Of a DNA stretch of 64,000 bases, positions 3,349-49,145 are shown piece by piece. The stretch lies in NCBI GenBank assembly GCA_045106715.1, contig JBGCFC010000009.1, forward strand, positions 64,001 to 128,000, read 5' to 3'. Both the position numbers and the translations under genes were made by a program. The notes under the pieces are model-generated. The model had not been told where the DNA came from and made no database searches. It saw nothing but the letters and a program-made list of their open reading frames with translations. Source of the DNA: Sandaracinaceae bacterium. Its GTDB lineage: Bacteria; Myxococcota_A; Polyangia; Polyangiales; Sandaracinaceae. Every line of letters starts with the position of its first letter. The stretch's first letter is position 1.

Positions 3349-3768
3349 TCAGGCACGCGCCGGTTGGGCGCGGTCCACCGCGTCGCGGAGCGCGGCCGGC
3401 GCCGAGACGGTGGCGCGGGTCTTCGGGTCGACGCACACGCTGGTGAGCTCCGCCTGGGCGAGAACGTTGCCGTTCGGGCCACGCATCACGTATTCGCTGA
3501 CCACGCTGCTGCGACCGATCCGCGCGATGCGCGTCTCGATGGCGACGACCTCCTCGAAGGTGGCGCTGCCGCGGTAGTCGCACTTGGCGCCGCGGTAGAA
3601 CATGTCGACGCCGGCTTCGACCAGGTCCTGCCATGGGCAGCCGATGTGCCGCATGTAGGCGGCCAACGCCTCGTCGCAGAACGTCAGGTAGTTCGCGAAA
3701 TACATGTGGCCCTGCGCGTCGGTGTCGGCGAAGCGGACGGGCATCTCGAAGATGAACGGGGTGGTCAC
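3349..3768 (-). CDS. acyl-CoA thioesterase, hotdog fold (4HBT/YbgC family)
   Basis: 139 aa with the typical 4HBT signature 'VRFADTDAQGHMYFANYLTFCDEA...' and a coding-like composition. Confidence 0.85.
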   Translation of the reverse strand: MTTPFIFEMPVRFADTDAQGHMYFANYLTFCDEALAAYMRHIGCPWQDLVEAGVDMFYRGAKCDYRGSATFEEVVAIETRIARIGRSSVVSEYVMRGPNGNVLAQAELTSVCVDPKTRATVSAPAALRDAVDRAQPARA

Positions 3769-3831
3769 CGACGCAGCCTGACCGAAGCCAACTTGAACAT
3801 CGAGCGCCCGCCGTGCGTCTATGTTCTCGTG

Positions 3832-4593
3832 ATGCGCGCGACGACCCTCTTCGGCACCGTGCTGTGTGCTTGCCTCTTCTCATTGCCCAGGCCCGGCTCC
3901 GCCCAGGAGATGAGCGCGTCCGATCGCCAGGCTGCACTGACGCGGGTGCGGGTGATGGTCGACTGCGTGGAGCGGGAGAACGCGGCGCTTCAGCGCATCA
4001 ACCGGCTGATTCGCGACTCCGAAAGGCAGCGCGACCAGGCCAGGGACGCGCGCGTCAGAGGTGACGCCGAGGCATCTCTCGAAGCGCTCATCGCCCAGGC
4101 CGCCGATCTCCAGCGACGCGCGTCGGAGTGTTTCGCGGGCGATGCCTTGCCCACGCCCGGCACCCGCGTCATCCGGCAGGCCCCGCCGCCGGACCCCGCC
4201 GCCGACTCGGTCGCCGGCACGGGCGGCACGGTGCGCGAGGTGGAACGCGACACTGCGTTGAGCGGCAACGTGCGGGTCGTCGTCGCGGAGCAGGTCGACG
4301 GGGAGGGACGGCTCGACCCTTCCACCGTGCAGCGTGCCTTCCACGCCACGGCGCCGCGGATCGAGCGCTGCTACGAGCGCTGGCTCAACCGGGGCAGTTT
4401 GACGGCGCACCAGTTGGACGTCGTGTTCACCCTGCGTTCAGCGAGCGCGCGCCGGGTGACCATCGAGCGCTCCGACTTCGGCGATGCGGCCATGGATCGC
4501 TGCGTGACCGCGGCGGTCTCCCGGCTCCGGGCGAGCCGTGCGCCTTCGGGTGGCCCGGCCACCTACAGCTACCGCCTGCGGTTCGGTCGGTAG
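3832..4593 (+). CDS. secreted hypothetical protein (signal peptide, coiled-coil, conserved C-terminal domain)
   Basis: An internal ATG at 3832 opens a signal peptide 'MRATTLFGTVLCACLFSLPRPGSAQE'. The upstream part of ORF 3232.. is antisense to the thioesterase and Arg-rich, so it is likely spurious. The C-terminal block 'RIERCYERWL...VVFTLRS...RVTIERSDFGD' resembles TonB-C/AgmX-like domains common in myxobacterial secreted proteins (inference). Confidence 0.55.
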   Translation: MRATTLFGTVLCACLFSLPRPGSAQEMSASDRQAALTRVRVMVDCVERENAALQRINRLIRDSERQRDQARDARVRGDAEASLEALIAQAADLQRRASECFAGDALPTPGTRVIRQAPPPDPAADSVAGTGGTVREVERDTALSGNVRVVVAEQVDGEGRLDPSTVQRAFHATAPRIERCYERWLNRGSLTAHQLDVVFTLRSASARRVTIERSDFGDAAMDRCVTAAVSRLRASRAPSGGPATYSYRLRFGR

Positions 4594-6348: not shown

Positions 6349-8904
6349 GTGAAGCGGCTCATCGACGGGATCGCCCATGCGGTCACCCGCCGGAGGGCGC
6401 AGGTGCTGCTCTCGGTCGCGATCGTCTGTGCCGCGAGCGCCGTCTGGATCCCGAGCCTCGAGGCCGACCCGCGCCCGCAGACCTTGACCGCGAGCAGCCT
6501 GGAGAACCAAGCGCAGATCTCCGCGCGCTACCGTGAACGCTTCGGGAACCCCGATCACGTGGTGGTGCTGCTCATCCGCGCCGACGACGTGCTTGCGCCA
6601 GGCCCGCTCGACTACGTGCATCAGGTCGCCACGGCGTTTCAGGGCCGCGACTACGTCAGCCGCGTGGAGGGCATCACCGTCACCCCGCTCGCCTACCGCG
6701 CCGATGAAGTGAGCGAAGAGACGCTCGACGGGCTCGACGACGGCGAGACGCTCGACGACCTGGGCGGGGGAGAGACACTCGACGATCTCGGGGGCGATCC
6801 GACCGGCGCAGGGCAGGACATCGACCCCGCGCTCGAGGCGGCGCTCGGGCAGCTCGTGCTCGCAGCGCCCGAGTACTTCCCGATGGGGCTCGGCACCCTG
6901 GCCAACCGGATGGCCGAGCAGACCTACGGGCCGATCGTCGAGGGCGACTCGATCGAAGAGGCCGAGCGGGAGCGTCTGATCGCCGCGCTCGAAGACGCAC
7001 CCCTGCTCGAAGGGCGCCTCATCAGCCACGACCATGGCCTGACCGCGGTGGCGCTGGTGCTCGACGACCGGGTCGAGGACCACCAGGTGATGCAGGCGTC
7101 GGTGCGCGACGTGGACGCGTGGCTGGCCGCGCACCCGCCCCCCTCGGGCGTGTTGATGGACGTCGGTGGGCTGCCGCACTTGTTCGACTCGATCGTCGTG
7201 AAGATGGAGCACGACAACTTCCGCATCGTGCCGCTCACGCTGCTGGTCTGTTTGGTCCTGCTCTACGTCTCGTTCCGCTGGGTGCCCGGGATGGTCCTGC
7301 CGGTCGTCGCGGTGGGCTTGAGCGCGCTGATGGTGGTGGGCGCGATGGCGTTCCTCGGCGAGACGATGAACGTCGTCAACAACATCATCCCGCCGCTGTT
7401 AATCATCATCGGGGTCAGCGACTCGATCCACCTGATCGGGCGCTATCGCGAGGAGCTCGAGCACAGCAAGACGATGATCGAGGCCGCGGCCAACACCGTC
7501 CGCGCGATGGCGGTCGCGTGTTTCCTCACGTCGATCACGACGTCGGTGGGGCTGGCTTCGTTGCTCGCGTCGCAGACCGAGATGCTGCGTCGCTTCGGCC
7601 TGATCGCATCGTTCGGCGTGATGATCGCCTACTTCGTCACCATCGGGTTTCTCCCGTCGGCGATGACGTACTTCAAGCCCCCGCTGCCCCCGCGCGCGCG
7701 GCCGAAGAAGGGCGAGCAGCGGGCCGATCGCGGCTTGCTCGAGAAGGCCATCGTGGTGCTGACGGCGAAGATCCTTCGCCGCCCCTGGCCGTTCATCGTG
7801 GGCGCCACGCTGCTCTTTGGCGGCTTCGTGTACAGCGCGCTCCAGGTCGAGGTGGACAGCGCCCTGCTCGACGAGTTCGACGAAGAGGACGCCGCGTTCC
7901 AGAGCACCGTCCTGATGGAACAGGAGCTCGAAGGCGTCCGTCCGCTCGAGATCATGCTCGAGTCAGACGAGCCGGGCCGCTTCCACGACCCTGAGGTGCT
8001 CGCCGCGGTCGACGAGATGCAGGCCTGGTTGCACGAGCAGGACGCCGTGCTCGGGTCGGTCGCGCCGACCGATCTGCTCCACATCACGTGGGCGCGCCTC
8101 ACCGGCGAGCCCGACGAAGCCGACGCGCCGTTCCGATCCCGCGATCAAGTCGCGGCGCTGTTTGCCCTGTTCGCTGAGATCGACCGCAACCCGCTGGACA
8201 CGATGGTGGTGGAGGACGGCCGCGTGGGCCGCATCCAGGTGCGGCTCGGGGACGTCGGCGCGGCCGCCAGCCTGGTGATCATCGACGACCTGCAAGCGCG
8301 GCTTCATGAGCGCTTCGATCCCTTGGGGATCCGGGTCTCGCTCACGGGGGAGGGCTATACGGGATCCGTTGGCCTCGAAGCGATCGTCCGCGACTTGCTC
8401 GGCAGCCTGAGCACCGCGGTGGCGATCATCTTTGCACTGCTCGTCTTCCTGTTTGGGAGCTGGCGCCTCGGGCTCCTGAGCATCCCTCCGAACGTGATCC
8501 CGCTGGTCGGCACGATGGCGTGGATGTCGTGGCGCGACATTCGGCTCAACGCCGCCACGGTGATCGTCTTCTCCATCAGCCTCGGGCTCGCGGTCGATGG
8601 ATCGATCCACCTGCTGGCGCGCTACCGCGAGGAGATCGCCAGCGGGCTCGGTCGGAACTCGGCGCTGCTGCGGGCCGCCCGAGGCACGGGCCGCGCGGTC
8701 GTGGTCTCCTGCATCACGCTGATGCTCGGCTTTGGCGTGATGTTGCTCAGCTCGTTTGTGCCCGTTCGCCGATTTGGTGAGCTCATCGGCGTGACGGTGG
8801 GGATGTGCCTGTTGTCGACGCTCGTCGTGCAGCCCGCGCTCCTTCGCGTCTGGGCTCCGAAGACGCCGCCCAATCGGTTCCGTCGCCCGCCCAAGGAGTT
8901 CTGA
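6349..8904 (+). CDS. MMPL/RND-superfamily (SSD) membrane transporter, HpnN-like
   Basis: It has two 6-TM bundles with large periplasmic loops, 'GVSDSIHLIGRYREEL' and 'LAVDGSIHLLARYREE' SSD motifs. The ORF is open from 6253, but the GTG at 6349 ('VKRLIDGIAHAVTRRRAQVLL') fits MMPL N-termini better. Confidence 0.85.
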   Translation: MKRLIDGIAHAVTRRRAQVLLSVAIVCAASAVWIPSLEADPRPQTLTASSLENQAQISARYRERFGNPDHVVVLLIRADDVLAPGPLDYVHQVATAFQGRDYVSRVEGITVTPLAYRADEVSEETLDGLDDGETLDDLGGGETLDDLGGDPTGAGQDIDPALEAALGQLVLAAPEYFPMGLGTLANRMAEQTYGPIVEGDSIEEAERERLIAALEDAPLLEGRLISHDHGLTAVALVLDDRVEDHQVMQASVRDVDAWLAAHPPPSGVLMDVGGLPHLFDSIVVKMEHDNFRIVPLTLLVCLVLLYVSFRWVPGMVLPVVAVGLSALMVVGAMAFLGETMNVVNNIIPPLLIIIGVSDSIHLIGRYREELEHSKTMIEAAANTVRAMAVACFLTSITTSVGLASLLASQTEMLRRFGLIASFGVMIAYFVTIGFLPSAMTYFKPPLPPRARPKKGEQRADRGLLEKAIVVLTAKILRRPWPFIVGATLLFGGFVYSALQVEVDSALLDEFDEEDAAFQSTVLMEQELEGVRPLEIMLESDEPGRFHDPEVLAAVDEMQAWLHEQDAVLGSVAPTDLLHITWARLTGEPDEADAPFRSRDQVAALFALFAEIDRNPLDTMVVEDGRVGRIQVRLGDVGAAASLVIIDDLQARLHERFDPLGIRVSLTGEGYTGSVGLEAIVRDLLGSLSTAVAIIFALLVFLFGSWRLGLLSIPPNVIPLVGTMAWMSWRDIRLNAATVIVFSISLGLAVDGSIHLLARYREEIASGLGRNSALLRAARGTGRAVVVSCITLMLGFGVMLLSSFVPVRRFGELIGVTVGMCLLSTLVVQPALLRVWAPKTPPNRFRRPPKEF
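6718..6795 (+). repeat. in-frame tandem repeat (~3 x 27 bp) encoding 'ETLDGLDDG/ETLDDLGGG/ETLDDLGGD' inside the MMPL periplasmic loop
   Basis: Direct nucleotide repeats 'gagacgctcgacg..ctc...ggc' seen three times consecutively in the sequence. Confidence 0.6.
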
Positions 8905-18694: not shown

Positions 18695-19657
18695 ATGCCC
18701 CTTCGCCGAAGTGCTTTGCCCGCTGCGCTCGCTCTGGTCCTTAGCGGGTGCGGGGTCGAGGGCTGCAGTGCGGGCCCGGCGGCGCACCTCCCGGATCCGC
18801 AGTCCGCGCCGGCCGCGGAGTTGCCGAGCGAGGCCGCCTATCCGGCGGCTGTCGTCGAGTCGCTGCCAAGCGCGACGCCCGCATCGACCGTGACGATCGA
18901 CCCCTCGGGGGTGAGTGTCGACAACGTCGAGCTGCTCACGTCGTGGCCACCCGATGCGCTCGCACGTGCGCAGGCCTCGTCCAGTGTGGAGGGCTGGCCG
19001 CGCGTGCAGGTCAGCTTGCCGTACCCTTCAGACGAGACGGGGGAGATCCCGGCGCTCCGCGCCGCGCTCACTCAAACGCGGGAGGCCGAGCGCGCCGCGA
19101 CGGGAGCCGGCCAGGGGGCGGGCACCTACAACCTGCGGGTGGCCAATGCGGTGCCGTTTCGTGTCCTTCAGCGGGTGCTCTTCAGCAGCGCCATGGCTGG
19201 CTATGGGCCCCCTCGGATCCTCGTTTCTTCCCCGGCCGGAGACCGCCTGCTCCAATGGCCTTCGTCGTTGCCCCGGAACGTGCCCACGCCCGAGCAGTTC
19301 GCCGCGCTCATGAGAGGCGCGCCGCTCCCTGAAAATCCGGACGCACTGCCGGAGCCCGAGCGCCCGGCGCGCGCGATCCTTCGTCCCGACGGCGCGGTGC
19401 AAGTTCAGCTCGGGGACGCCACTCAGACGGCCGGCTGTGCGGCCGCGTCCGAAGAGCCGGACCCGGTCACGCTGCTGCCAGACGCCTCGCCCGCAAGCTT
19501 CGCTCGCTGTTTCGAAGCCCTCCATCCGCGCACCGACGAAGACGCCATCGCGCTGTTCATCGCCGCCGATGTGCCCTTTGCTCAGCTGTCGCCCGTGGTG
19601 CAGCACGCCACCCGCGTCTTCGACCAGGTGCGTGTCCGAAGGCAGCCGTCTCCGTAG
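18695..19657 (+). CDS. lipoprotein, hypothetical
   Basis: An internal ATG at 18695 gives 'MPLRRSALPAALALVLSGC'; Ala/Pro-rich with no recognisable domain. Confidence 0.5.
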   Translation: MPLRRSALPAALALVLSGCGVEGCSAGPAAHLPDPQSAPAAELPSEAAYPAAVVESLPSATPASTVTIDPSGVSVDNVELLTSWPPDALARAQASSSVEGWPRVQVSLPYPSDETGEIPALRAALTQTREAERAATGAGQGAGTYNLRVANAVPFRVLQRVLFSSAMAGYGPPRILVSSPAGDRLLQWPSSLPRNVPTPEQFAALMRGAPLPENPDALPEPERPARAILRPDGAVQVQLGDATQTAGCAAASEEPDPVTLLPDASPASFARCFEALHPRTDEDAIALFIAADVPFAQLSPVVQHATRVFDQVRVRRQPSP

Positions 19658-19731
19658 CGAAAGCAGCCTCCGCAAGGAAAGAACCCCCGCGACCCGGAGG
19701 GCGGCGGGGGTCTTCGGAGCGCTCGGCGGCC

Positions 19732-20346
19732 TCAGCCGGCGACGGCGCGGATCGCGACGTTGACCCGGATCTCGTTGCTCACCTTGAGGCGAACGGGGAG
19801 CGGAATCGAAACGTTGTAGTCGGTCAGGCGGATGCGGAAGCTCGCCTGCGCGCGGATGGTGTCCGTCTCCACGCTCTCGTGAGAGGCGGGGATGAGGCGG
19901 ACCTGGGCGTTGGCGACGATGTCGTGGGTGACGCCGTGGATGCTAAAGCGGCCGTGGAGACGGACACGGGTAGACTGGTTCGGCTGGAGGGAGCTGGCGC
20001 CCTCGACGCGCGTGATCTCGAAGGTGGCGTTCGGGTTGGCGCCGGCGCCGAGCCAGTTGTCGCTGCGGAGATGCTCGTCCCGAAGGTCGATGCCCGTGCG
20101 GATCGAGGCCACTCGGACGTTGATCGTGCCGCGCGCGGCGGACAGGTTGCTCGGGTCGAGGCTGACGCTGCCCGTGACATGGCTGCTGACCCCCGTGATG
20201 GTCTCGAGCGGCGCGTCGGAGACAAACTGGATGCGGCTACCGCCGTCGTTGCGAATCTGGAAGTCGCGCGACTGGGCGGAGGCGACCGAGCTGAGGCCAA
20301 GGCCCAGCAGGGCGGCGAGGGCGAGGGTCGAAAGCGTCTTGTGCAT
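19732..20346 (-). CDS. YceI-like periplasmic protein (polyisoprenoid-binding fold)
   Basis: Signal peptide 'MHKTLSTLALAALLGLGLSSVASAQ' followed by a YceI-like beta-barrel pattern ('...ATFEITRVEG...HGRFSIHGVTHDI...'). Confidence 0.75.
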   Translation of the reverse strand: MHKTLSTLALAALLGLGLSSVASAQSRDFQIRNDGGSRIQFVSDAPLETITGVSSHVTGSVSLDPSNLSAARGTINVRVASIRTGIDLRDEHLRSDNWLGAGANPNATFEITRVEGASSLQPNQSTRVRLHGRFSIHGVTHDIVANAQVRLIPASHESVETDTIRAQASFRIRLTDYNVSIPLPVRLKVSNEIRVNVAIRAVAG

Positions 20347-20509
20347 GGGGGGGAGTCTCCTCGGTGAGTTCAGGCAGGCCACGGCCGGCAGACGGCGCGC
20401 GAGTGGCCCCGATTCATTTGAGTGGGGTACGCGGGAGCAGGGCGCTCGTTACGTGGCCGAATGCTCTCCCACAAGGGAGTTCGCGTCGAGGTCTGTCTTG
20501 GCCGCGGTC

Positions 20510-21334
20510 TCAGAGACGCCGCAGCGTGACGGTGCCGGGCTCGCGTGGCTCCGTGGCGGAGGAGTCGCGGTAGCGGAGCTGTTCCCCGTCGACGCAGTAC
20601 TCCCAGCGCTTGCCCGAGAAGCCCCCCACGATCTCGTTGCTCATCGTGCTGTACGTGTCCATGTCGTCGATCACCGTCGACAGCGACGCGGTGCACTCGC
20701 AGTTGCCGGTGCTGTCCGCGGTGCACGACGCCTCGTCGACGAGCCCCCGCATCGCGTCTTCCAGCATCGAGCAGCTGAAGAACGCCGCGCAGACCGCCGG
20801 AAAGAACAGGTCCGTCTCGACCACCGATTCGGCGACCCGATGAGCGGCTCCGGAAGACTCGAACCGTACACGCCCGCGTCCACGTCCCTCGCGACGGGTG
20901 ACCATCGCGCCCGGGCAGCTGGAGATCGCCGACTCGATGTCCACCTCGAAGCAGCCGCCGCTGAGATCCCATGTGCCGACGATGTCCCCACCGCAGGGGG
21001 TTAGCGCCGGGCAGCTGCCGACGGGTCCGACGGTGAGGTCCACCCAGTCGGGGGCGGGGCGAGACGGGTCGGGCCAAGTGAGCCCGGCGTCAGGGTCGGC
21101 GCCCGCGTCCGTGGTGCCGGCGTCGACCGCGCCCGAGTCAGAGGTGCCGGCGTCAGGTGGGCCGGAATCGACGAGGCCCGCGTCCGCCGCGCCGCCGTCG
21201 GGCAACGTGGATCCGTCGAGGCCAGGGACACGCGCATCGGTCGGCCCGGCGTCCGAATCGCCGCCGCCTCCACACCCGGTGGCAACAGCGACAAGCAGGA
21301 GCAATGGAACCCGTGAGGAGATGTTCATGCTCAT
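20510..21334 (-). CDS. Cys-rich (12 Cys) Asp/Gly-rich lipoprotein, hypothetical
   Basis: Lipobox 'VATGC' and an acidic low-complexity linker. The start lies 44 nt downstream of the DUF2063 gene stop on the same strand. Confidence 0.55.
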   Translation of the reverse strand: MSMNISSRVPLLLLVAVATGCGGGGDSDAGPTDARVPGLDGSTLPDGGAADAGLVDSGPPDAGTSDSGAVDAGTTDAGADPDAGLTWPDPSRPAPDWVDLTVGPVGSCPALTPCGGDIVGTWDLSGGCFEVDIESAISSCPGAMVTRREGRGRGRVRFESSGAAHRVAESVVETDLFFPAVCAAFFSCSMLEDAMRGLVDEASCTADSTGNCECTASLSTVIDDMDTYSTMSNEIVGGFSGKRWEYCVDGEQLRYRDSSATEPREPGTVTLRRL

Positions 21335-21378
21335 GAGTGGCGGCAGGCCCCGAGAGTTATCAACGGCAAGGCGAAACG

Positions 21379-22149
21379 CTACGCCGAACCGAGAATCAGA
21401 TCCTGCTCCACCAGGTCGGCCAACACCCCAGCCATGCCGTCGATGAAACGCGCGTCGGGCTCTCGCCCGAGGTCGGCCAGCACCCGGCGCACGCCGTCCG
21501 CGCAGCTCGTCCCTTCCTCGCTCGCTTCGCGCCAGGCGACAAAGAGCAACGCGCCGATGGGGTTGAGCACGTAGGTGGAGATTCGGGGGTTGCCTGGCTT
21601 CCGGTAGATGAGCGCGAGGTGCGGCTCCTCGAGGACCTCAGGAGACTCGCTGCTTTTGTCCACGCGATGGTGGAGGTCGAGCGTGCGCACCGTGCGGTTC
21701 CACACCGGAGGCCGCTCGAAGTCGAACTCCGGGTGCGTGCCGTCGGTCGGCTCACCGGGCAGAGATGCGACACGCCACTTGAGCGCCTCGAAGCGGGCCA
21801 GGTCGGGCAGGTGCGACGGCAGGGTCGGGTCGACCTCCCAGGCGGGGAGGGTGTGCGCGAGCAGCTCGTGAACGACCTCACGGATGAACCGACTCCGCGG
21901 TCCGTGGTCGGCCAAATACCCGGCGACCGCGTCCTCGAACATCGGCTCGCCGAGCACCGCCGCGGTCTTCGGGAGCCCGCTGCGAATCATCTCTCGCAGC
22001 CGAAAGCGGACCATGTGGCGGTAGAGTTTCCAGCGCTCGGGGTCGTCGTGCAGCGTGTCGAGGTCGGCTTTGGGCGGCTCGCGCTCCAAACACACGCGTG
22101 TGAACGCGCGCTCCAGCTCCGCGATCGTCGGGGCGGTGCCCTCACTCAT
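21379..22149 (-). CDS. DUF2063-family protein (partner subunit of MNIO/DUF692 enzymes)
   Basis: 256 aa starting 'MSEGTAPTIAELERAF'. The ATG at 22147-22149 overlaps the DUF692 stop (ATGA). Length and N-terminal helical region are typical of MbnC/TglI/BufC-like partners. Confidence 0.75.
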   Translation of the reverse strand: MSEGTAPTIAELERAFTRVCLEREPPKADLDTLHDDPERWKLYRHMVRFRLREMIRSGLPKTAAVLGEPMFEDAVAGYLADHGPRSRFIREVVHELLAHTLPAWEVDPTLPSHLPDLARFEALKWRVASLPGEPTDGTHPEFDFERPPVWNRTVRTLDLHHRVDKSSESPEVLEEPHLALIYRKPGNPRISTYVLNPIGALLFVAWREASEEGTSCADGVRRVLADLGREPDARFIDGMAGVLADLVEQDLILGSA

Positions 22150-23030
22150 CGGGCCACCGCCGATTCCCTTGCCGTGTGCCGCGCCTCGAACGCGGCGATC
22201 CCGCGCTGGTAGATGGTGTCGAGCTGCCTCACCTCGTCGAGCAGTTCCGCCAGCGGTGGGATGTTCTGGTCGCGCTCGAGAAGGACCGGTGTCGGCCCGA
22301 CGTGAGCCAGCGTGTACTCGAGCAACTCGAACACCCCTTCGCACACCGGTTCGCCGTGCGTGTCGATGATCAGGCCGTCCTTGCGGGTGAAATGTCCGGC
22401 GACATGCATCTGCACGACGCGCTCCCGCGGGATGCGATCGATGTACGGCTTTGGGTCGAACCCGTGATTCAGCGAGTTGACGTAGATGTTGTTCACGTCG
22501 AGCAGGAGCTTGCAGTCCGCCGCCTCGAGCACCTCGAGCAGGAAGTCCGGCTCGTCCCATCCGCCCCGCTCCGCCGGGTCGGCGTAGAAGCTGATGTTCT
22601 CGATCGCCACGGGGCGCTCGATGGCGTCGCGCAGTTCTGTGACGCGCGCGGCCACGACGTCGACCGCCTCTCGGGTGAAAGGCAGTGGAAGGAGATCGTG
22701 GAGGTAGAGCCCGTCGATGCCGGCGAAGCAGAGGTGGTCGCTGTACCAAGGCGCGTCGACCTCATCGAGCAGCACCTTGAGTGACTTCACGTAGCCCGGC
22801 TCGAACGGCGACGTGGTCCCGAAACACAGGGTCAGGCCGTGGGGGACGACCGGCCATCCCTCCTGCGCCTTCTCCAGGTTCATACGGAAACGCCCGCCCC
22901 TGTCCACGTAGTTCTCGGGATGGATCTCCAGCCAGTTCACTTCGTTGGGCGCCTGCTCGAAGAACGCATCCGCCATGTCGTGACGGAGCCCAAGCCCCAC
23001 GCCCTCTGCCGCCTGTCGTTCAGCCATCAT
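22146..23030 (-). CDS. DUF692 / multinuclear non-heme iron oxidase (MNIO, MbnB/TglH/BufB-like TIM-barrel enzyme)
   Basis: 'MMAERQAAEGVGLGLRHDMADAFFE...NWLEIHPENY...', 'WYSDHLCF' and 'IENISFY' match the DUF692 xylose-isomerase-like TIM barrel. The start was taken at the MM codons at 23025-23030, traced codon by codon. Confidence 0.85.
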   Translation of the reverse strand: MMAERQAAEGVGLGLRHDMADAFFEQAPNEVNWLEIHPENYVDRGGRFRMNLEKAQEGWPVVPHGLTLCFGTTSPFEPGYVKSLKVLLDEVDAPWYSDHLCFAGIDGLYLHDLLPLPFTREAVDVVAARVTELRDAIERPVAIENISFYADPAERGGWDEPDFLLEVLEAADCKLLLDVNNIYVNSLNHGFDPKPYIDRIPRERVVQMHVAGHFTRKDGLIIDTHGEPVCEGVFELLEYTLAHVGPTPVLLERDQNIPPLAELLDEVRQLDTIYQRGIAAFEARHTARESAVAR

Positions 23031-23080
23031 CGGTAGGTATGCCTCGAAATCGATTCGGATACAGGCCGTTAACGCAAGAA

Positions 23081-23108
23081 CGCGGGAGATCCCGAAGGTT
23101 CTCCCGCG
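23081..23108 (-). terminator. GC-rich hairpin (9-bp perfect stem 'cgcgggaga/tctcccgcg') between precursor and MNIO genes; putative attenuator/partial terminator
   Basis: Palindrome read from the sequence. On the minus-strand RNA it is followed by 'UUCUUGCGUU'. Confidence 0.4.
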
Positions 23109-23162
23109 AACTCGCTCCGCGCCGGACGAGCCGGCTCGGGTCAAACGATCACGTCAGCGTGA

Positions 23163-23450
23163 TCACTCACTCTCTTCAGCGGCGCCGCAGCTGCCAGCGC
23201 CGCAGGACGCCTCGGCACCCGCCTCTTCGCCACCCTCGGACGCACCCTCTTCGGACGCGCCGGAGCAGGACGCCTCGCCGGCACCGCTGCAGGACGCCTC
23301 GCCGCTTCCGCTGCAGGACGCTTCGCCGCCACCGGTCTCGGTCTCGCCGCCACCTTCGCCGCCGGCGTCGCCGCCGCCACAGCCGTACGCCGTGAGGCCA
23401 AGAGTCGCCGCCGCAATCGCTACGAGTGAGGTCTTGAGCTTCGTGTTCAT
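23163..23450 (-). CDS. exported acidic Cys-repeat peptide; candidate MNIO (RiPP) precursor
   Basis: The 95-aa product is 'MNTKLKTSLVAIAAATLGLTAYGCGGG...GEASCSGSGEASCSGAGEASCSGASEEG...EASCGAGSCGAAEESE'. It has a Sec or lipoprotein signal, 6 Cys and tandem 21-nt repeats. The ATG at 23448-23450 is preceded by 'GGGGAG'. It lies directly upstream of the MNIO gene on the same strand. Confidence 0.6.
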   Translation of the reverse strand: MNTKLKTSLVAIAAATLGLTAYGCGGGDAGGEGGGETETGGGEASCSGSGEASCSGAGEASCSGASEEGASEGGEEAGAEASCGAGSCGAAEESE

Positions 23451-23832
23451 TTCCAAAATTCTCCCCGAACCAATCACAAGGGTTCGATTGGGCCGCTCGG
23501 ACGACACTCGTCAGTAGCGACCGTCTGATGAGGTCGATGCGCATCTTACGCCAGATCAACCTCGGAGTTACAAGTACCTAACGAACATTTTCTGCCGATG
23601 CGGACCGAAACCCAGGCGTTTCGTAGGAGAGGTTCCCACATGGGACTACCCCCCTCGTCGGACAAACCGTCCAATGCGCTCAGAACGGCCTGGCCCCGGC
23701 CCACCCGGGTTGTGCGCACACGCCGATTACGACGCTGCGCGCCGTTCGGATCGAGGCGTGCCCGCGCCAACGCAGCGCGGTGGGGTCTCCGATCCACCCG
23801 GGTCCGATCGACGCGGGGTCCGATCGACGCGG

Positions 23833-25662
23833 TCAGATCGAGGGTGGCAGCAGAAGCGTGAACGCGCCGCTCTCGTCGGTCACCGCGCGGCCGATCTGGA
23901 TGGCGCGGGTCGATGTGTCGGTGCTCTCGACGATCGCGTAGGCCCGCACCTCGGCGCCGACGGCGAGCGCGGTCCCTTCGAAGCGCGCCACGCCGGTCAT
24001 CGTCACGGGCGTCGCCAGCTCGAAGACGTTGTTGAGCGGCGCGGCCGACCCCCCGATCGGCTGGTCGGGGACGACGAGCCACGGGTAGTTGGAGCCGCCC
24101 GCGGGCTCGACCACGACGTCGTAGACGCCCACGTCGAGGTTGACGTTGAACACGCCGTCGAGGTCGGTGACGGTGCTGCTGGACCGTGCGAGTGAGGCGA
24201 TCGGTCCGAGCATGCCCATCCAGTCGACGCCGCGGGGACGCGCCCGGATCTGAGCGGCCTCGAACCCGACCGCTTCGGGCGTGCGCACGACTCCGCCGTA
24301 CTGAGCGCGGAACGGGACCTGGAACACTTGGCCGCGCACCTCGCCTTGCTCCGGGCCGATGCGAACCGTCTGCCGCAGGATGCGCAGCGTCTCGCCGATC
24401 TCCGACGACGCCTCGGGCGTGACGACGACGTCGTAGGTGGCTTGCTCCTCCGCGGTGCCGGGCAGGAGCTGCACCTCGAAGCGCCCCGCGTCTTCGCCGA
24501 CACCTGTTGTGGTGCTGGTGCGGAAGCTCCCCACGACGCCCGTCTCGCCGTCCACGACGTTCAACGCGCTGAGGCTGACCGAGGCGTTCTCGACCGGGCG
24601 GCCCCGATCGTCCTCGACGAGCCCCTGGTAGGTCACGATGGTGCCCACCTCCGGGGTCAGGATGGTGACCATGCCGCCGACCTCGAAGAGCGAGCTCGGG
24701 TCCGCGCTGAAGGTGGGGCTCGGGCCCTCTTCTTCGATGCGTTCCGCGCTGGGCGTTACGGTGTAGAGCCAGTCGTTGGCGCGCCACGCGGCGAGCGGGA
24801 GCACGACGCGGAAGGTGCCAGCTTCCACGTCCTCTGCCGTGTCGGCCCCGGTTGTGTACACGGACGACAGCAGCTGGTTGGTCTCCGCGCGCACGACGCG
24901 GACGATCATCTGGTCCTGGGGCTCGCCCTCTCCGTCGACCACGGTCCCGCTCATCTCGACCAGGCAGTCCGCCTCGGCCGAGGGGTCTTCCATGACGGCG
25001 CTGGTGCACAAGTCGGGGTAGTTGAGGAAGTCGAGGAACGCGCTGTCGCTCCCGCTCGGGCTGCGGTAGGTCGCGCCGACTCGGAGCGGAGGGCGCCTCG
25101 CGGCCCATGCGCCGGTCGGGGTGACCGTGATGTCGTAGTCGCGGCCCGGCAGCAGGCTGACGGTGAGGTTGCTGTTCCGGTTCTCGCCGTCCTGGGTGAC
25201 CTCTTCCACCGCCTGCGCGCTCAGCCGCGTCGACGGGCCGGCTTCGAAGGCGCTCTGGAGGTTGAACGTCACCGTGGCGGTGATGGCCTCCTCGGTCCGG
25301 GTGTCCCACACCAGCCCGCTGGTGCGGACGGGCTCGGGCAGCACGAGCAGTCGCGGCTCATCCTCGGGGCCATCGAGCTCGAAGCTCTCGAAGCTCACCA
25401 GGATGGGCGTGCCGCCCGCGGCGGTCGTCTCCGGGAGCACCTCGAGCCCGATCCGGATCGGCTCGCGAACCTCGGTCGTGCACATGCCGAGCTCGACGTC
25501 GCAGGTGCCGGTCCGGCAGTCGCCATCGCCTTCGCATCGGTTGGCGAGTGGGGGCGCGTCGGCAAAGCTGCACCCGTATTGCGAACCGAGCGCGAGTGCC
25601 AGCACGGCCGCCGCTGAGAACCCGAGGGCGGCACGAAGCCGCGCTGAACTCAAGCCGGTCAT
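23833..25662 (-). CDS. large secreted/lipoprotein, beta-rich, hypothetical
   Basis: ATG at 25660-25662 gives 'MTGLSSARLRAALGFSAAAVLALALGSQYGC'. The Thr/Val/Glu-rich composition suggests a beta-sandwich. The start overlaps the upstream gene stop (ATGA). Confidence 0.6.
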   Translation of the reverse strand: MTGLSSARLRAALGFSAAAVLALALGSQYGCSFADAPPLANRCEGDGDCRTGTCDVELGMCTTEVREPIRIGLEVLPETTAAGGTPILVSFESFELDGPEDEPRLLVLPEPVRTSGLVWDTRTEEAITATVTFNLQSAFEAGPSTRLSAQAVEEVTQDGENRNSNLTVSLLPGRDYDITVTPTGAWAARRPPLRVGATYRSPSGSDSAFLDFLNYPDLCTSAVMEDPSAEADCLVEMSGTVVDGEGEPQDQMIVRVVRAETNQLLSSVYTTGADTAEDVEAGTFRVVLPLAAWRANDWLYTVTPSAERIEEEGPSPTFSADPSSLFEVGGMVTILTPEVGTIVTYQGLVEDDRGRPVENASVSLSALNVVDGETGVVGSFRTSTTTGVGEDAGRFEVQLLPGTAEEQATYDVVVTPEASSEIGETLRILRQTVRIGPEQGEVRGQVFQVPFRAQYGGVVRTPEAVGFEAAQIRARPRGVDWMGMLGPIASLARSSSTVTDLDGVFNVNLDVGVYDVVVEPAGGSNYPWLVVPDQPIGGSAAPLNNVFELATPVTMTGVARFEGTALAVGAEVRAYAIVESTDTSTRAIQIGRAVTDESGAFTLLLPPSI

Positions 25663-26252
25663 TGACTGCCCGCGCAAGTGGTCATGTCGGGGGTGGGGTT
25701 GCCGTCGTTGAAGCCGCCGACGAACCACACCCCAATGCCCAGATCGCGTCGGGTCCCCTCCATCATGCCGTCCTCGACCGGTTCGAGGCTGGGGAGGTTT
25801 TGGAACTCGCGGCTGACGTGCAGCTCGATCCGGTTGCAGTTTGGAACCAAGTCGGCCCGGGAGACGGTGAACTCGATGCGCCGCTCCAGCGTCCCCGCGG
25901 AACCATCGATGTCGATCTCGGTGACCGTACCCGGTCCCTCGTCACGATTTAGGTTCACGTAGATGCGCCCCTCGAGCTCGTCGAGGAGGTTGGCGTCTCG
26001 CACGATGGCCGAGATCGTCACGTCACGCGTGAAGGGGCTGGCCGCCCCACTGTCTCCGGGGAACGGATTGTCAATGGGGCCCACCTGGCGCGTGATGGTC
26101 TGAAACATCGGCGTCGTTGCGGTTCCGTGCACCGAGGGCGGGAAGTTCGCCGGCTCGTCGAACGACGGTTCCTGTGTGATGAGGCAGCCCATGAGGGAAG
26201 TGGTGGAGACCGATCCGAAGCACACCGCGAGAGCGAGAAGCGAACGGCTCAC
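25659..26252 (-). CDS. lipoprotein, hypothetical
   Basis: GTG at 26250-26252 preceded by 'AGAGGA', giving 'VSRSLLALAVCFGSVSTTSLMGC'. Confidence 0.45.
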   Translation of the reverse strand: MSRSLLALAVCFGSVSTTSLMGCLITQEPSFDEPANFPPSVHGTATTPMFQTITRQVGPIDNPFPGDSGAASPFTRDVTISAIVRDANLLDELEGRIYVNLNRDEGPGTVTEIDIDGSAGTLERRIEFTVSRADLVPNCNRIELHVSREFQNLPSLEPVEDGMMEGTRRDLGIGVWFVGGFNDGNPTPDMTTCAGSQ

Positions 26253-26391
26253 CCACGATCCTCTAGCAATGTGAGTGCCACGCACCGATGCACGCGAGAT
26301 CGAAACGGTCTCGGTGGAAGAATCAGAGCTGGCGGCACGAAGCTGCGACATCGATGTCAGGGACCCGGTGGGAGCGCGAGGAGCGCAAATC

Positions 26392-28218
<1,827 letters not shown>

Positions 28219-28332
28219 GCCGGGGAGGATACCCGACGCCGGGCGCCTGTGTCCGCTTCGGCGCGGTGTCCGCGCCAACGGAAGGGCGTGGACCGGCAAC
28301 CGGGGCGGTCGTTGTGCCGATGAGCCGGCCGT

Positions 28333-40258: not shown

Positions 40259-47227
<6,969 letters not shown>

Positions 47228-47287: not shown

Positions 47288-48538
47288 CTATTCTTGGACG
47301 GCAGTTTCGGGGAGCATTCCCCGCATGACGGCTGCGTGGAGGCCAGTCGGGTGGCTGTCGAGATAGGTGCGAGCCAGCTCGCGCGCCGCTTCGACCTCTC
47401 CGGCCTGCGCTCGTGCCTCCGCTTCGCGCGCGAGGGCACCCGCCGCCAGCGGCCCCTCTGGAGCGAGCTCGCGAACCGTGCGGAAGGCGGCGGCGGCTTC
47501 GGCGGGGCGCTGCAACGGCGTCATCAACACACGCGCCCGCGTGAAGGCCACGAGCGGTCGGCGCGGGTCGTCGACCGCCACCTCCTCGGCGCGGACAAGC
47601 AGCCCGAGCGCCTCCTCATGGTGCCCCCGCATGCGCAGCGTATCCGCCGCCACCAGCAGCTCGTCGAGGTTGCCCCGTCGCAGCAGAGCGGTGTCGGCCT
47701 CGATCCCCTCGAGCGCCCGATCCACCTCGCCGCTCTCGGCCTGTTCGATCCATGGGGGGGAGGGCGGCTCTGCTGCCGGCCGCGAATGGGCTTCAGAGGG
47801 ACGAGCGGAGCCGCGCGCCGCCTGGGCGCGACCCGGCCCCGGGCGGCCAGACCCTGTTGGGCCACGTGGAGGCTCGCCGGCCGTTTCACGATGGTGCAGC
47901 TCCGGGACACGCTCGGCGCGAACGCGAGCGGACGCCGAGCGCCGTTCGGTCAGGGAGAACGTTCGCTCGTCCCCCGCACCCAGCACCGTGCTGCCCTCGG
48001 GCGCGTCCACATGGACCCGACCCTGGTCGACCCGCACGCGCACCCGCTCGTCCATCCGTTCGATGTCGAACCGCGTGCCCAGGACGCTCACGACGACAGT
48101 ACTGACCTGCACCACGAACCGGCGGGGCTGCTCGGTCTGCGTCACGTCGAACCGCGCGGCGCCCCGGGCGAGGGAGAGGCGGATCCGGTCCGACTGAACC
48201 TCCTCGACGACGATCTCCGTGTCCTCGGTCAACGGCGTGGCGGTCGATCCGTCGGCGAGGTGAACGACCCCGTCCGCGCGCGAGCCGGGCGTGTCCTCCT
48301 GCGCAGTCGGCGGACGTTCGCTCGCCGTGGAGGCCGAGGGCACTTGGTGCATCAGCGCGCCCCCAACCAGCAGGGCCACGAGGGCCGCCGCGGCCACCCC
48401 CGCGCGTGCGATGTGACGCCGCCTCCGTCGCGCCTTCGCGCGTTCGAGCAGAGCCGTCACCTTGGGCTCGCCCCACCCCTCGGTGTTCACCTCGCGCCTC
48501 ACGGAGGCGGCGGCGGTCTCCAGCCGACCTTCAGCCAT
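47288..48538 (-). CDS. FecR-family anti-sigma factor with C-terminal TPR-like region
   Basis: A single TM ('AGVAAAALVALLVGGAL') precedes the FecR domain ('FVVQVSTVVVSVLGTRFDIERMDERVRVRVDQGRVHV'). The ATG at 48536-48538 lies 4 nt after the sigma gene stop. Confidence 0.7.
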   Translation of the reverse strand: MAEGRLETAAASVRREVNTEGWGEPKVTALLERAKARRRRRHIARAGVAAAALVALLVGGALMHQVPSASTASERPPTAQEDTPGSRADGVVHLADGSTATPLTEDTEIVVEEVQSDRIRLSLARGAARFDVTQTEQPRRFVVQVSTVVVSVLGTRFDIERMDERVRVRVDQGRVHVDAPEGSTVLGAGDERTFSLTERRSASARVRAERVPELHHRETAGEPPRGPTGSGRPGPGRAQAARGSARPSEAHSRPAAEPPSPPWIEQAESGEVDRALEGIEADTALLRRGNLDELLVAADTLRMRGHHEEALGLLVRAEEVAVDDPRRPLVAFTRARVLMTPLQRPAEAAAAFRTVRELAPEGPLAAGALAREAEARAQAGEVEAARELARTYLDSHPTGLHAAVMRGMLPETAVQE

Positions 48539-49145
48539 GTCCGAGTTTCCCCTGGAGCTTGGCCTCGGCCGCCGAGACACGGCGCTTGGCGGTGGCCAGA
48601 GAGCACCCGCAGAGCTCGGCGACGTCGCTCAAAGTATGCTGCTCGATTCGGCGCAGCACCCACGCGGTCCTTTCCTCGGAAGGGAGAAAGTCCAGGAGCT
48701 GGTAGACCTCCCCGACGAGGGTAACCTGTGCTGGGCTGGCGCTGGGGGACGCGACTTGTGCGTAGTCGGGCACTTGGTCGAGCCCCATCAAACGGCGCAA
48801 GCGACGCTTCTTGAGCACCCGTGTGGCCTTTCGAACGGTGAGCGTCGCCAGCCAGCCCTTCAAGGCCGCCGGCTCCCGCAGCGTGGCCCGCTGACGGTGA
48901 GCCGCGAGGAAGACCTCCTGAACCAGGTCGTCGACTTCGTCCGGCCGCCCGAGGATGCGCAGTCCGATGGCTCCGACGTATCGCGCGTACGCACGGAACG
49001 CGGCGTCGAAGTCGTCGAGGGAGACGACCTCGTCCGACGTCTCCGACGCGCTCGGCTTCGCGACGAGACGCAGATGCGGGGGGCTGTGCGCCATGCTCTC
49101 CTTCAGAGTGGCCCGATTGTGCGGAACTGGCTCATCTTTGTGCAC
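48531..49145 (-). CDS. ECF (group IV) RNA polymerase sigma factor
   Basis: Sigma-70 region 2 'DEVDDLVQEVFLAAHRQ' and region 4 'LSDVAELCGCSLATAKRRVSAA' are present. The start is uncertain and could be 49094. Confidence 0.8.
   Translation of the reverse strand: MHKDEPVPHNRATLKESMAHSPPHLRLVAKPSASETSDEVVSLDDFDAAFRAYARYVGAIGLRILGRPDEVDDLVQEVFLAAHRQRATLREPAALKGWLATLTVRKATRVLKKRRLRRLMGLDQVPDYAQVASPSASPAQVTLVGEVYQLLDFLPSEERTAWVLRRIEQHTLSDVAELCGCSLATAKRRVSAAEAKLQGKLGHG

Follow-up and report, generated by a model that had tools for sequence, protein, structure and literature searches.

A probable captophorin-type MNIO operon with a lipobox-bearing, acidic Ser-Cys precursor in polyangial Myxococcota

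All products of MNIO enzymes working with a PME1 partner have been unified as 'captophorins' with 5-thiooxazoles, and the modification of oxazolin was reassigned accordingly (Gadgil et al. 2026). Oxazolin, fontiphorin, gonophorin and the bufferins all bear 5-thiooxazoles and bind copper. The oxazolin system HvfABC of Haemophilus influenzae, the fontiphorin system FonABC and the gonophorin system NgoABC are Lys-Cys captophorins. In vitro, FonBC accepts Ala, Thr or Arg at position 3 of the motif and needs a small residue (Gly or Ala) at position 5; it modifies a double EGKCG repeat and leaves a single one unmodified. Besides a 'CxxxxC' family and about 2,000 Buf_EGKCG peptides, Antoine et al. 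(2025) reported 776 more unclassified Cys precursors with signal peptides, which adjoin MNIOs of the same mega-cluster. In their genome table, Sorangium and Haliangium have MNIOs and none of the named precursor families. A study of lipoproteins among the peptides that ribosomes make and that are then modified post-translationally (RiPPs) mined MNIO-associated peptides with a lipobox (2025 preprint PMC12636315; PNAS 2026 PMC13056109). NedA of the Lipo-NedABC system of Neisseria dentiae, which has a lipobox and EGKCG motifs, is triacylated and shows a shift of -4 Da per motif (PMC13056109). Cluster III of that study ('Oxazolin-like' lipoprotein precursors) contains EASCSG, EASCAG and EGSCGAGSCG motifs, with examples such as ...GEGEASCSGEAEGEASCSG...EEASCSGAA, ...AEGSCGAGSCGAGSCGKK and ...GGEASCSGKATQKGGEASCGEGTCG, and its cluster X ('likely uncharacterized RiPP precursor') combines a lipobox with CxxxxC and ends in ...ACGAGTCA (PMC12636315 supplement). 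Here we describe a three-gene cluster in a 64,000-nucleotide stretch of a Sandaracinaceae bacterium genome (GenBank assembly GCA_045106715.1, contig JBGCFC010000009.1, positions 64,001 to 128,000 of the forward strand), called the window below. It encodes a small Cys-bearing peptide, an MNIO and a DUF2063/HvfC-like partner with a putative RiPP recognition element (RRE). The cluster is almost certainly a real, functional RiPP operon. We consider it likely to be an MNIO/PME1 'captophorin' (bufferin + oxazolin) operon of three genes, in a lipoprotein-type, acidic Ser-Cys variant specific to polyangial Myxococcota.

The three genes lie on the minus strand (Table 1) at exactly the positions given in a first-pass annotation of the window, which had proposed a candidate bufferin-like RiPP system. 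That annotation described the canonical precursor-MNIO-partner (A-B-C) order of RiPP operons and a stop/start overlap between the two enzyme genes. The open reading frames (ORFs) and their family matches bear out the order, and the MNIO stop codon and the partner start codon do share an ATGA, at 22146..22149 within ...CCCGATGAGTGAG.... The Pfam matches expected for the two enzymes are also found, both above their cutoffs. The MNIO matches PF05114 (MbnB_TglH_ChrH) with E=3e-96 and 322.2 bits (cutoff 25), and its residues 10-273 align with profile positions 1-261 of 263, a near-complete TIM-barrel. The partner matches PF09836 (DUF2063) with E=7e-10 and 39.4 bits (cutoff 27.2), and there is a weak match to the C-terminal domain PF22106 (E=0.015). 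In NCBIfam the MNIO is closest to HvfB (NF003818) and then to BufB (NF050167), and reaches 42.5 bits with the MbnB model (cutoff 325). Five other MNIOs of the clade likewise score higher with HvfB (283-296 bits) than with BufB, below the cutoff in both cases. The sole NCBIfam match of the partner is HvfC (NF050145), covered at positions 22-236 of 237; this full-length similarity and the PF09836 score above threshold identify it as a PME type 1 partner.

The best match of the MNIO in the PDB is 3BWW (E=3e-60), which is 72% identical to HvfB (2026 preprint). The window enzyme contains the motifs HPEN37, PHGL63, SDHL97, IENIS143, DVNN178, HVAGH209, DTHG223 and LERDQ251, and all of these except SDHL97 align with identical motifs of 3BWW, the last one as LERD251. 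By this alignment the metal-binding and catalytic motifs of the MNIO superfamily are present. DVNN and DTHG hold the counterparts of the essential HvfB residues N175, D242 and H244, with the assignment of the iron ligands taken from the literature. The matches to HvfB, BufB and HvfC, the similarity to 3BWW and the shared motifs place the enzyme pair in the 'mega-cluster' of bufferin/oxazolin MNIOs, whose partner is of type 1 (DUF2063-RRE), and there it forms a sub-clade of its own. Two sites set the enzyme apart. The residue after the catalytic Asp is Gln (ERDQ) in the window MNIO and its close relatives and Asn, Ser, Asp or Gly (ERDN, ERDS, ERDD, ERDG) in other MNIOs of the clade; it is never Phe. 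The same site is Phe in Lys-Cys enzymes (ERDF in 3BWW; D249-F250 in FonB) and Asp in Cys-Lys enzymes (ERDD). At an N-terminal site the window MNIO reads GLRH, with RH in place of the Arg-Arg pair of Lys-Cys captophorin MNIOs.

The precursor has the sequence MNTKLKTSLVAIAAATLGLTAYGCGGGDAGGEGGGETETGGGEASCSGSGEASCSGAGEASCSGASEEGASEGGEEAGAEASCGAGSCGAAEESE. It was first described as an exported, Cys-bearing peptide, and this is correct, as a signal peptide is present and the core has five Cys. Two features went unnoticed, namely the lipobox at the end of the signal peptide and the HvfA-type CxxxxC motif at the C-terminus. The lipobox reads L-T-A-Y-G-C with Cys24 as its last residue (..TAYG-C24). 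It was called with a regular expression modelled on the PROSITE PS51257-type rule, and under this PS51257-style rule TAYG-C24 ends a lipoprotein signal peptide, as in RiPP lipoproteins; the product is thus predicted to be a lipoprotein. The rule is satisfied in all 21 close relatives, in 119 of the 120 listed among 247 profile relatives and in 51 of 59 further representatives, and the lipobox Cys falls at position 20-25 across family members (119/120). The core carries three GEASCSG units, which number two to three among relatives, and EASCGAGSCG. In an alignment of 13 precursor ORFs, the invariant columns are Cys24; E43, S45, C46; E51, S53, C54; and E80, S82, C83, G84, G86, S87, C88, G89, while the linkers between the Cys motifs drift. 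The predicted mature peptide has 72 residues of just seven amino-acid types (G23, E15, A13, S12, C6, T2, D1). It contains no basic residue (Lys, Arg or His) and no aromatic one, Ala is the sole aliphatic residue, and the core carries 16 acidic and 0 basic residues. AlphaFold2, run with a 36-sequence alignment, builds the signal-peptide helix only, with pLDDT < 50 for the remainder, and the precursor beyond the signal peptide is predicted to be disordered.

Conservation of the small ORF and its recurrence in other Myxococcota, both named as checks in the first-pass annotation, are observed. The closest MNIO loci among GTDB species representatives come from metagenome-assembled genomes (MAGs) of Sandaracinaceae, Polyangiales and Myxococcota, with 79-43% identity (loci are numbered with L below). 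The precursor-MNIO-partner order recurs in L001-L014, L019, L028-L030 and L032, with MNIO identity from 79% to 44%. In L015 (MNIO 43%), a precursor ORF with lipobox and CxxxxC stands 5' of the MNIO gene, and no DUF2063 partner was found at the tblastn threshold used. Every related myxococcal locus examined has a small ORF immediately 5' of the MNIO gene, and the flanking genes differ; the module consists of just three genes, placed in different neighbourhoods in different genomes. Judged from gene order, this recurrence in relatives puts the observation beyond chance. L006 (3204..3458 and 3609..3887), L007 and L008 have two tandem precursor genes 5' of one MNIO gene, with a structured spacer of ~150 nt between them. 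A profile search with the peptide found 247 relatives, and 119 of the 120 listed show the architecture of a lipobox followed by E[AG]SC[GS]. An exhaustive HMMER scan of 1.84 billion representatives gave 71 clusters at E<=1e-3. The peptide family is narrow. Its named sources are Sandaracinus, Sandaracinaceae, Polyangiales and Myxococcota, or the entry is called 'uncharacterized low-complexity protein'. Exact-sequence look-ups of the window proteins returned no record.

The window peptide has the HvfA/oxazolin skeleton, that is a Sec signal, E-x-x-C-G and a CxxxxC double repeat, and the cluster as a whole, MNIO plus DUF2063/RRE partner plus Cys-rich precursor, has the make-up of a captophorin cluster. 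The link to oxazolins comes from three comparisons. In L010, where the MNIO is 56% identical to the window enzyme, the precursor (EGSCGEGSCG) passes the HvfA-family model NF050137 (KCGExKCG_twice) with 28.9 bits (cutoff 19.5). Peptide P0143, a metagenomic sequence from the weak tail of the profile search, has AEGSCGEGSCG and AEGKCGEGRCG in one chain. In addition, AEASCGAGSCG of the window can be set directly against the AEGKCGEGKCG repeat of HvfA. P0156, from the same weak tail, is a canonical EGKCG peptide; the signal peptides of P0143 and P0156 have no lipobox and are probably cleaved by signal peptidase I. At the level of sequence, these peptides show Ser-Cys and Lys-Cys motifs as interchangeable variants. 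EASCG-AGSCG satisfies all three FonBC rules. The window precursor itself gives no match to NF050137 (cutoff 19.5 bits) even at E<=10. As it matches no curated model, it is not a member of the HvfA family in the strict sense, and it appears to work like an oxazolin precursor.

Upstream of the precursor gene, alignment of the window with L001, L002, L003 and L005 reveals two invariant blocks, CTTGTAAC and TGGCGTA, with a 13-nt spacer of variable sequence between them. They contain the motif GTAAC-N16-CGTA. Promoters of extracytoplasmic function (ECF) sigma factors have the general form of an 'AAC' -35 element and a 'CGT' -10 element with 16-nt spacing. In the 64-kb window the motif is found twice (0.05 expected), the second time in front of a yceI-like gene. 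Across 33 fetched loci the form G[TA]AAC-N16-CGTA occurs 17 times. Twelve copies are 5' of the precursor (L001, L002, L003, L005, L010, L011, L013, L014, L015, L019, L028, L029) and four are 5' of yceI (L001, L004, L005, L032). This distribution suggests a shared ECF-type regulon of precursor and yceI. The remaining copy, GAAAC-N16-CGTA at L014 6842..6866, is immediately 5' of a fusion-like MerT/MerP-like (HMA-domain) heavy-metal transporter gene (6807..7559, plus strand), ~1 kb downstream of the related cluster in this single locus. ECF sigma and anti-sigma genes lie beside about 23% of MNIO clusters and are common in bufferin clusters. For CorE of Myxococcus xanthus, the published rule 'AAC ... 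16-18 nt ... G' does not permit an assignment of the motif to this factor. A sigma-54 promoter, an idea that came from a sigma-54 activator gene upstream of the cluster, was rejected, since the conserved TGGCGTA...TGC does not have the GG-N10-GC spacing. A MerR/CueR-type promoter with a 19-bp spacer was rejected as well, since the spacer sequence is not conserved. Between promoter and start codon, the 5' leader (23472..23546, minus strand) has a block conserved in five loci, TGCGCGTCGACCTCA ... GGTCGCCGC ... GACGAG. It holds a CGACC/GGTCG inverted repeat, which could be a leader hairpin or an operator, and has no Rfam match. An Rfam scan of 19500..24000 gave one chance match (CPEB3, E=0.45) and no known RNA element in the leader or intergenic region.

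The gap between the precursor and MNIO genes is strongly structured. RNA folding of 23020..23170 (151 nt) gives -68.5 kcal/mol with z = -3.85, and two hairpins are found here, one over the precursor stop codon and one, rich in GC, within the gap (Table 1). A strong GC-rich hairpin occurs at the same position in L001-L008 and L010, which include close and moderately related loci; a T-run comes after it in L003 and L010, the pattern of an intrinsic terminator. Covariation analysis with RNAalifold was uninformative since MAFFT misaligned the 5' arms, and single-sequence folds were used. A consensus scan for promoters and terminators in 21000..24000 gave 0 sites; promoter and hairpins were found solely through comparison of loci. 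A partial terminator between precursor and enzyme genes is a common arrangement in RiPP operons. The GC-rich hairpin is a candidate for such a partial terminator (attenuator), which would raise the ratio of precursor to enzyme transcripts.

Table 1. Features of the cluster and its surroundings (window coordinates, except where a related locus is named)
Feature	Position	Strand	Evidence
Gene for 95-aa precursor; signal peptide and lipobox Cys24, then acidic core of 71 residues (Gly/Glu/Ala/Ser; 5 Cys)	23163..23450	-	
MNIO enzyme gene, 294 aa, without signal peptide	22146..23030	-	PF05114
DUF2063/HvfC-like partner gene, 256 aa, translationally coupled to MNIO	21379..22149	-	PF09836
Signal peptide and lipobox, residues 1-24 (MNTKLKTSLVAIAAATLGLTAYG-C)	23379..23450	-	PS51257-style rule
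24-nt tandem repeat, 2.9 copies, encoding GEASCSG[SA] units (Cys46, Cys54, Cys62)	23265..23334	-	Tandem Repeats Finder
C-terminal double motif AEASCGAGSCG (Cys83, Cys88; CxxxxC)	23184..23216	-	Invariant columns
Shine-Dalgarno-like GGGGAG, 10 nt 5' of precursor ATG	23461..23466	-	Kept in five-locus alignment
ECF-sigma-type promoter motif GTAAC-N16-CGTA, ~96 nt 5' of precursor ATG	23547..23571	-	Cross-locus alignment
Second GTAAC-N16-CGTA copy, 5' of yceI	20428..20452	-	Window motif search
Hairpin over precursor stop codon, GATCACG-CTGA-CGTGATC	23147..23164	-	RNA fold
GC-rich hairpin GCGGGAGA...TCTCCCGC with tail GTTCTTGCGTT, precursor-MNIO gap	23071..23107	-	Single-sequence folds
yceI-like gene, likely true start ATG at 20346	19732..20382	-	PF04264, E=4e-27
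M61-like gene, L001	5608..7119	+	
M61-like gene, L006	1505..2941	-	
M61-like gene, L028	3372..4703	-	
M61-like gene, L030	1200..2657	-	

Besides the enzyme matches and the link to oxazolins, the captophorin reading is based on the conservation of the trio in more than 20 loci while its flanking genes differ, and on the fact that the invariant columns of the precursor are the lipobox Cys and the E-x-S-C motifs. We propose the following course of events. An ECF-type sigma factor would start transcription at GTAAC-N16-CGTA. The hairpin 3' of the precursor gene would stop part of the transcripts and leave more precursor than enzyme mRNA, and read-through transcripts would give the MNIO and the HvfC-like partner, translationally coupled by the ATGA overlap. 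In the cytoplasm, the MNIO-partner heterodimer would oxidise core Cys to 5-thiooxazoles with -4 Da each, by analogy with HvfBC, FonBC, NgoBC, NedBC and BufBC. The targets would be the two Cys of AEASCGAGSCG (Cys83, Cys88) and, most likely, those of the GEASCSG units as well (Cys46, Cys54, Cys62). After Sec export, Cys24 would be diacylglycerylated, signal peptidase II would cleave the signal peptide and the new N-terminus would be acylated, as the invariant lipobox and the precedents of NedA and DybA suggest. The outcome would be a 72-residue disordered, acidic, membrane-tethered lipopeptide that sequesters Cu(I), or a different soft metal, in the periplasm or on the cell surface and so serves in a response to envelope or metal stress. 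By analogy with the characterised systems, the product is most likely a membrane-tethered 5-thiooxazole peptide that sequesters copper or another soft metal. As to function, the copper chelator suggested in the first-pass annotation, periplasmic or on the surface, remains the best guess.

Several points weigh against this reading. The MNIO scores below the cutoffs of the two models that it matches best, HvfB (306.8 bits; cutoff 360) and BufB (284.6 bits; cutoff 310), and the partner scores below that of HvfC (E=4e-18, 66 bits; cutoff 142). With Gln instead of Phe after the catalytic Asp, substrate handling may differ. The precursor has no match in Pfam or NCBIfam even at E<=10, and the published cluster III peptides reach just 14-22 bits with the profile of the Sandaracinaceae clade, with heavy composition bias. 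FonBC leaves a single EGKCG repeat unmodified, which makes modification of the three isolated EASCSG units uncertain. No DoxX or copper-resistance gene adjoins the cluster. The ECF assignment of the promoter motif is purely a consensus match. The sole ECF sigma gene in the window (Sigma70_r2 + r4_2; 48531..49145, minus strand) is 25 kb away, and with no GTAAC-N16-CGTA motif upstream of it, it is probably not the cognate factor. The GC-rich hairpin was not called by the consensus terminator scan and is not followed by a canonical U-tract in the window. More generally, for this clade we infer modification, lipidation, metal binding and regulation alike.

Around the cluster, gene content varies among relatives. 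The yceI-like gene is near the cluster in the closest relatives only, and L002 and L032 have it on the opposite strand; for these reasons it is probably a co-regulated neighbour and not a member of the operon. One Legionella bufferin cluster also holds a YceI gene. The product of 20510..21334 (minus strand), 45 nt 3' of the partner gene, is a Cys-rich lipoprotein of 274 aa, whose N-terminal region is rich in DAG and which has no Pfam domain. It is 100% identical to the Sandaracinaceae MAG protein AB8I08_03220 and has 45 homologues, and none of those checked is beside an MNIO. We considered it as a fourth operon gene and rejected this as incidental, since no related cluster has a counterpart and the homologues are in unrelated neighbourhoods. 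A tblastn search with DoxX of bufferin locus L022 as query, which matches all proteobacterial bufferin loci, found no DoxX in the window or in any of the myxococcal loci, and precomputed Pfam annotation of three further loci contains none either. In most relatives a gene for a predicted M61-like lipoprotein is near the cluster, in at least three arrangements. It encodes 445-505 aa with the gluzincin motif HExxH-x18-E and weak matches to Peptidase_M61 (glycyl aminopeptidase). Besides the four loci in Table 1, the gene is found in L002-L004, L007, L008 and L010, and weakly in L012, L013 and L019. It lies directly 3' of the partner gene in L001-L004, divergently upstream in L006-L008, L010 and L028/29, and nearby in L030. 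It is absent in the window, L005 and L032, and the window shows no remnant of it. As a speculation, the M61-like lipoprotein could act as a peptidase that processes the Gly-rich lipopeptide. Upstream of the cluster are a 631-aa CarboxypepD_reg-like secreted protein (23833..25728), a 230-aa protein (25659..26351) and the sigma-54 activator (26392..28299), all on the minus strand; the activator has GAF, AAA+ and HTH_8 domains and possibly an FHA-like N-terminus. These three genes are syntenic in L002, L003, L005 and L032, and nothing found ties them functionally to the RiPP genes. A very large ORF of 2322 aa with an N-terminal signal-like sequence is found farther away (40259..47227, minus strand).

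The main alternative to weigh is that the Cys are modified with a chemistry, metal or function unlike that of a copper-binding 5-thiooxazole, for example an oxazolone-thioamide, another MNIO reaction or a non-copper target. MNIO subfamilies catalyse very different reactions, the window enzyme stays below the HvfB and BufB equivalog cutoffs, and its ERDQ differs both from ERDF of Lys-Cys enzymes and from ERDD of Cys-Lys enzymes. The purely acidic core is unlike the Lys-rich HvfA, and the MerT/MerP-like gene of L014 has the same promoter motif. However, all MNIOs with a DUF2063-type partner characterised in the literature consulted install 5-thiooxazoles, HvfB and BufB are the top two matches at ~300 bits, and the E-x-x-C-G skeleton is kept, with mixed EGSCG/EGKCG peptides in existence. 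We consider a different chemistry unlikely. It is somewhat less likely still that the product is soluble, in the periplasm or secreted, after signal peptidase I cleavage or release by a protease. HvfA and the bufferins are signal peptidase I substrates, the lipobox call depends on a regular expression, and the adjacent M61-like lipoprotein in most relatives could trim or release a Gly-rich peptide. Against this, the lipobox Cys is invariant in 119 of the 120 listed family members, NedA and DybA are MNIO products that are true lipoproteins, and the window has no M61-like gene that could release the peptide.

The small protein could also be an unmodified Cys lipoprotein, such as a thiol- or metal-binding tether, with another peptide substrate or none for the MNIO pair. 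The peptide is indeed of low complexity and without a curated model match, AlphaFold2 predicts no structure for it, and myxobacterial genomes encode many Gly/Asp/Ala-rich lipoproteins, of which the product of 20510..21334 is an example. We find this very unlikely, as the peptide strictly adjoins the MNIO upstream in every locus examined despite rearranged surroundings, the tandem duplication touches the precursor alone in three loci, the Cys motifs and the lipobox alone are invariant while linkers drift, and the L010 precursor passes the HvfA-family model. The reading as a bufferin proper, with a BufA1 (DUF2282) or BufA2 (6/12-Cys) precursor, is effectively refuted. The score with the BufB model and the gene order, which is that of bufABC, are what it has in its favour. 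The precursor has no DUF2282 match in Pfam and no predicted folded domain, and with no Lys in the peptide a Cys-Lys motif is impossible. All ten clade MNIOs tested score higher with HvfB than with BufB, and true DUF2282 loci (L021-L027) carry DoxX and have MNIOs just 34-39% identical to the window enzyme. The first-pass interpretation holds in part. Its remark that the peptide resembles neither the DUF2282 nor the BUF_6/12Cys class is supported in so far as the peptide has no Pfam match and, with zero Lys, is no Cys-Lys (Buf2-like) peptide.

The captophorin reading may also be taken further. The polyangial clade could be a functionally distinct captophorin branch, with a lipid-anchored, poly-acidic Ser-Cys peptide whose modification or metal preference is unlike that of EGKCG oxazolins. 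The branch would be part of a stress regulon under an ECF sigma factor, which also takes in yceI and, in one relative, a MerT/MerP-like transporter gene. M61-like processing in most relatives would add a maturation step new to MNIO peptides, and the window genome would be a natural variant without the peptidase. We regard this extended form as rather unlikely.

The precursor had first been called an undescribed substrate family, and this does not stand. Only two of the known precursor classes had been compared, and the third, Buf_EGKCG/oxazolin (HvfA), is the closest; moreover, EASCSG-type lipobox peptides are already tabulated (PMC12636315 / PMC13056109). We see no new class here, because published precedents exist for enzyme pair, gene order, motif skeleton and lipidation, and the motif type has been tabulated. 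The cluster is best placed in the oxazolin-like branch of the MNIO-PME1 captophorins, as a lipoprotein subtype. The weak profile scores of the tabulated peptides mean that the motif type is catalogued, but the window clade has no specific description. The novelty is modest: the delimitation of the clade, the co-variation of Ser-Cys with ERD-Q and the absence of DoxX. Also new are the ECF-type promoter in common with yceI, the conserved attenuator-like hairpin and the association with M61-like genes in relatives. If the captophorin reading is true, thiooxazole metallophores reach Myxococcota in a membrane-tethered, DoxX-independent, Ser-Cys form, and the clade offers a natural test of the enzyme residues that set substrate specificity (ERD-Q/N/S/D/G vs ERD-F). 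The shared ECF-type promoter gives a handle on the inducing stress and on the remaining members of the regulon.

Among the known systems, methanobactin (MbnABC) is alike in that an MNIO oxidises Cys of a small peptide to a copper-binding heterocycle. It differs from the window cluster in several respects: MbnC is not DUF2063, the precursor has a leader peptide and no Sec signal, the ring is an oxazolone-thioamide, and the role is copper acquisition and not sequestration. Bufferins BufA1 (DUF2282) and BufA2 share with the window the MNIO mega-cluster, the DUF2063 partner and a Sec-exported Cys precursor. Their thiooxazole chemistry, role in copper stress and frequent ECF sigma control may, by analogy, be counted as further likeness. 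In contrast to the window peptide, bufferin precursors are folded domains or Cys-Lys peptides, and DoxX and sigma/anti-sigma genes are usually adjacent, as seen in L021-L027. Compared with BufA2 (BUF_6/12Cys), the window core has five Cys and no Lys and is predicted to be disordered. The cluster X peptides resemble relatives of the L015 type. For cluster III and the window clade, motif equivalence is seen, and scores of 14-22 bits do not establish homology.

NedA is close in architecture, with a lipobox precursor beside an MNIO and its partner, and cytoplasmic modification followed by triacylation is the route that we propose for the window peptide. It differs in having the canonical EGKCG motif and in coming from a betaproteobacterium, whereas the window has EASC[SG]G motifs and is from Myxococcota. 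The closest comparison is with HvfABC. The differences are several. In the window, Ser and not Lys precedes Cys, the core is strongly acidic, and EASCSG units that stand singly, with Cx7C spacing, make up three of the five motifs. The window signal peptide has a lipobox for signal peptidase II, whereas HvfA has a signal peptidase I site. The window cluster has no DoxX, its MNIO has ERDQ and not ERDF and RH and not RR, and its proteins score below the cutoffs of the HvfB, HvfC and HvfA models. The likeness includes an MNIO with a DUF2063/RRE partner, the A-B-C gene order, the Sec signal and repeated E-x-x-C-G with a CxxxxC double repeat, and by analogy one 5-thiooxazole per Cys and copper binding would be expected for the window peptide. 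HvfA has 95 residues, 24 of which form its signal peptide, and contains AEGKCGEGKCG three times (PMC11252979). The window precursor has the same length, and its AEASCGAGSCG mirrors the skeleton of this repeat.

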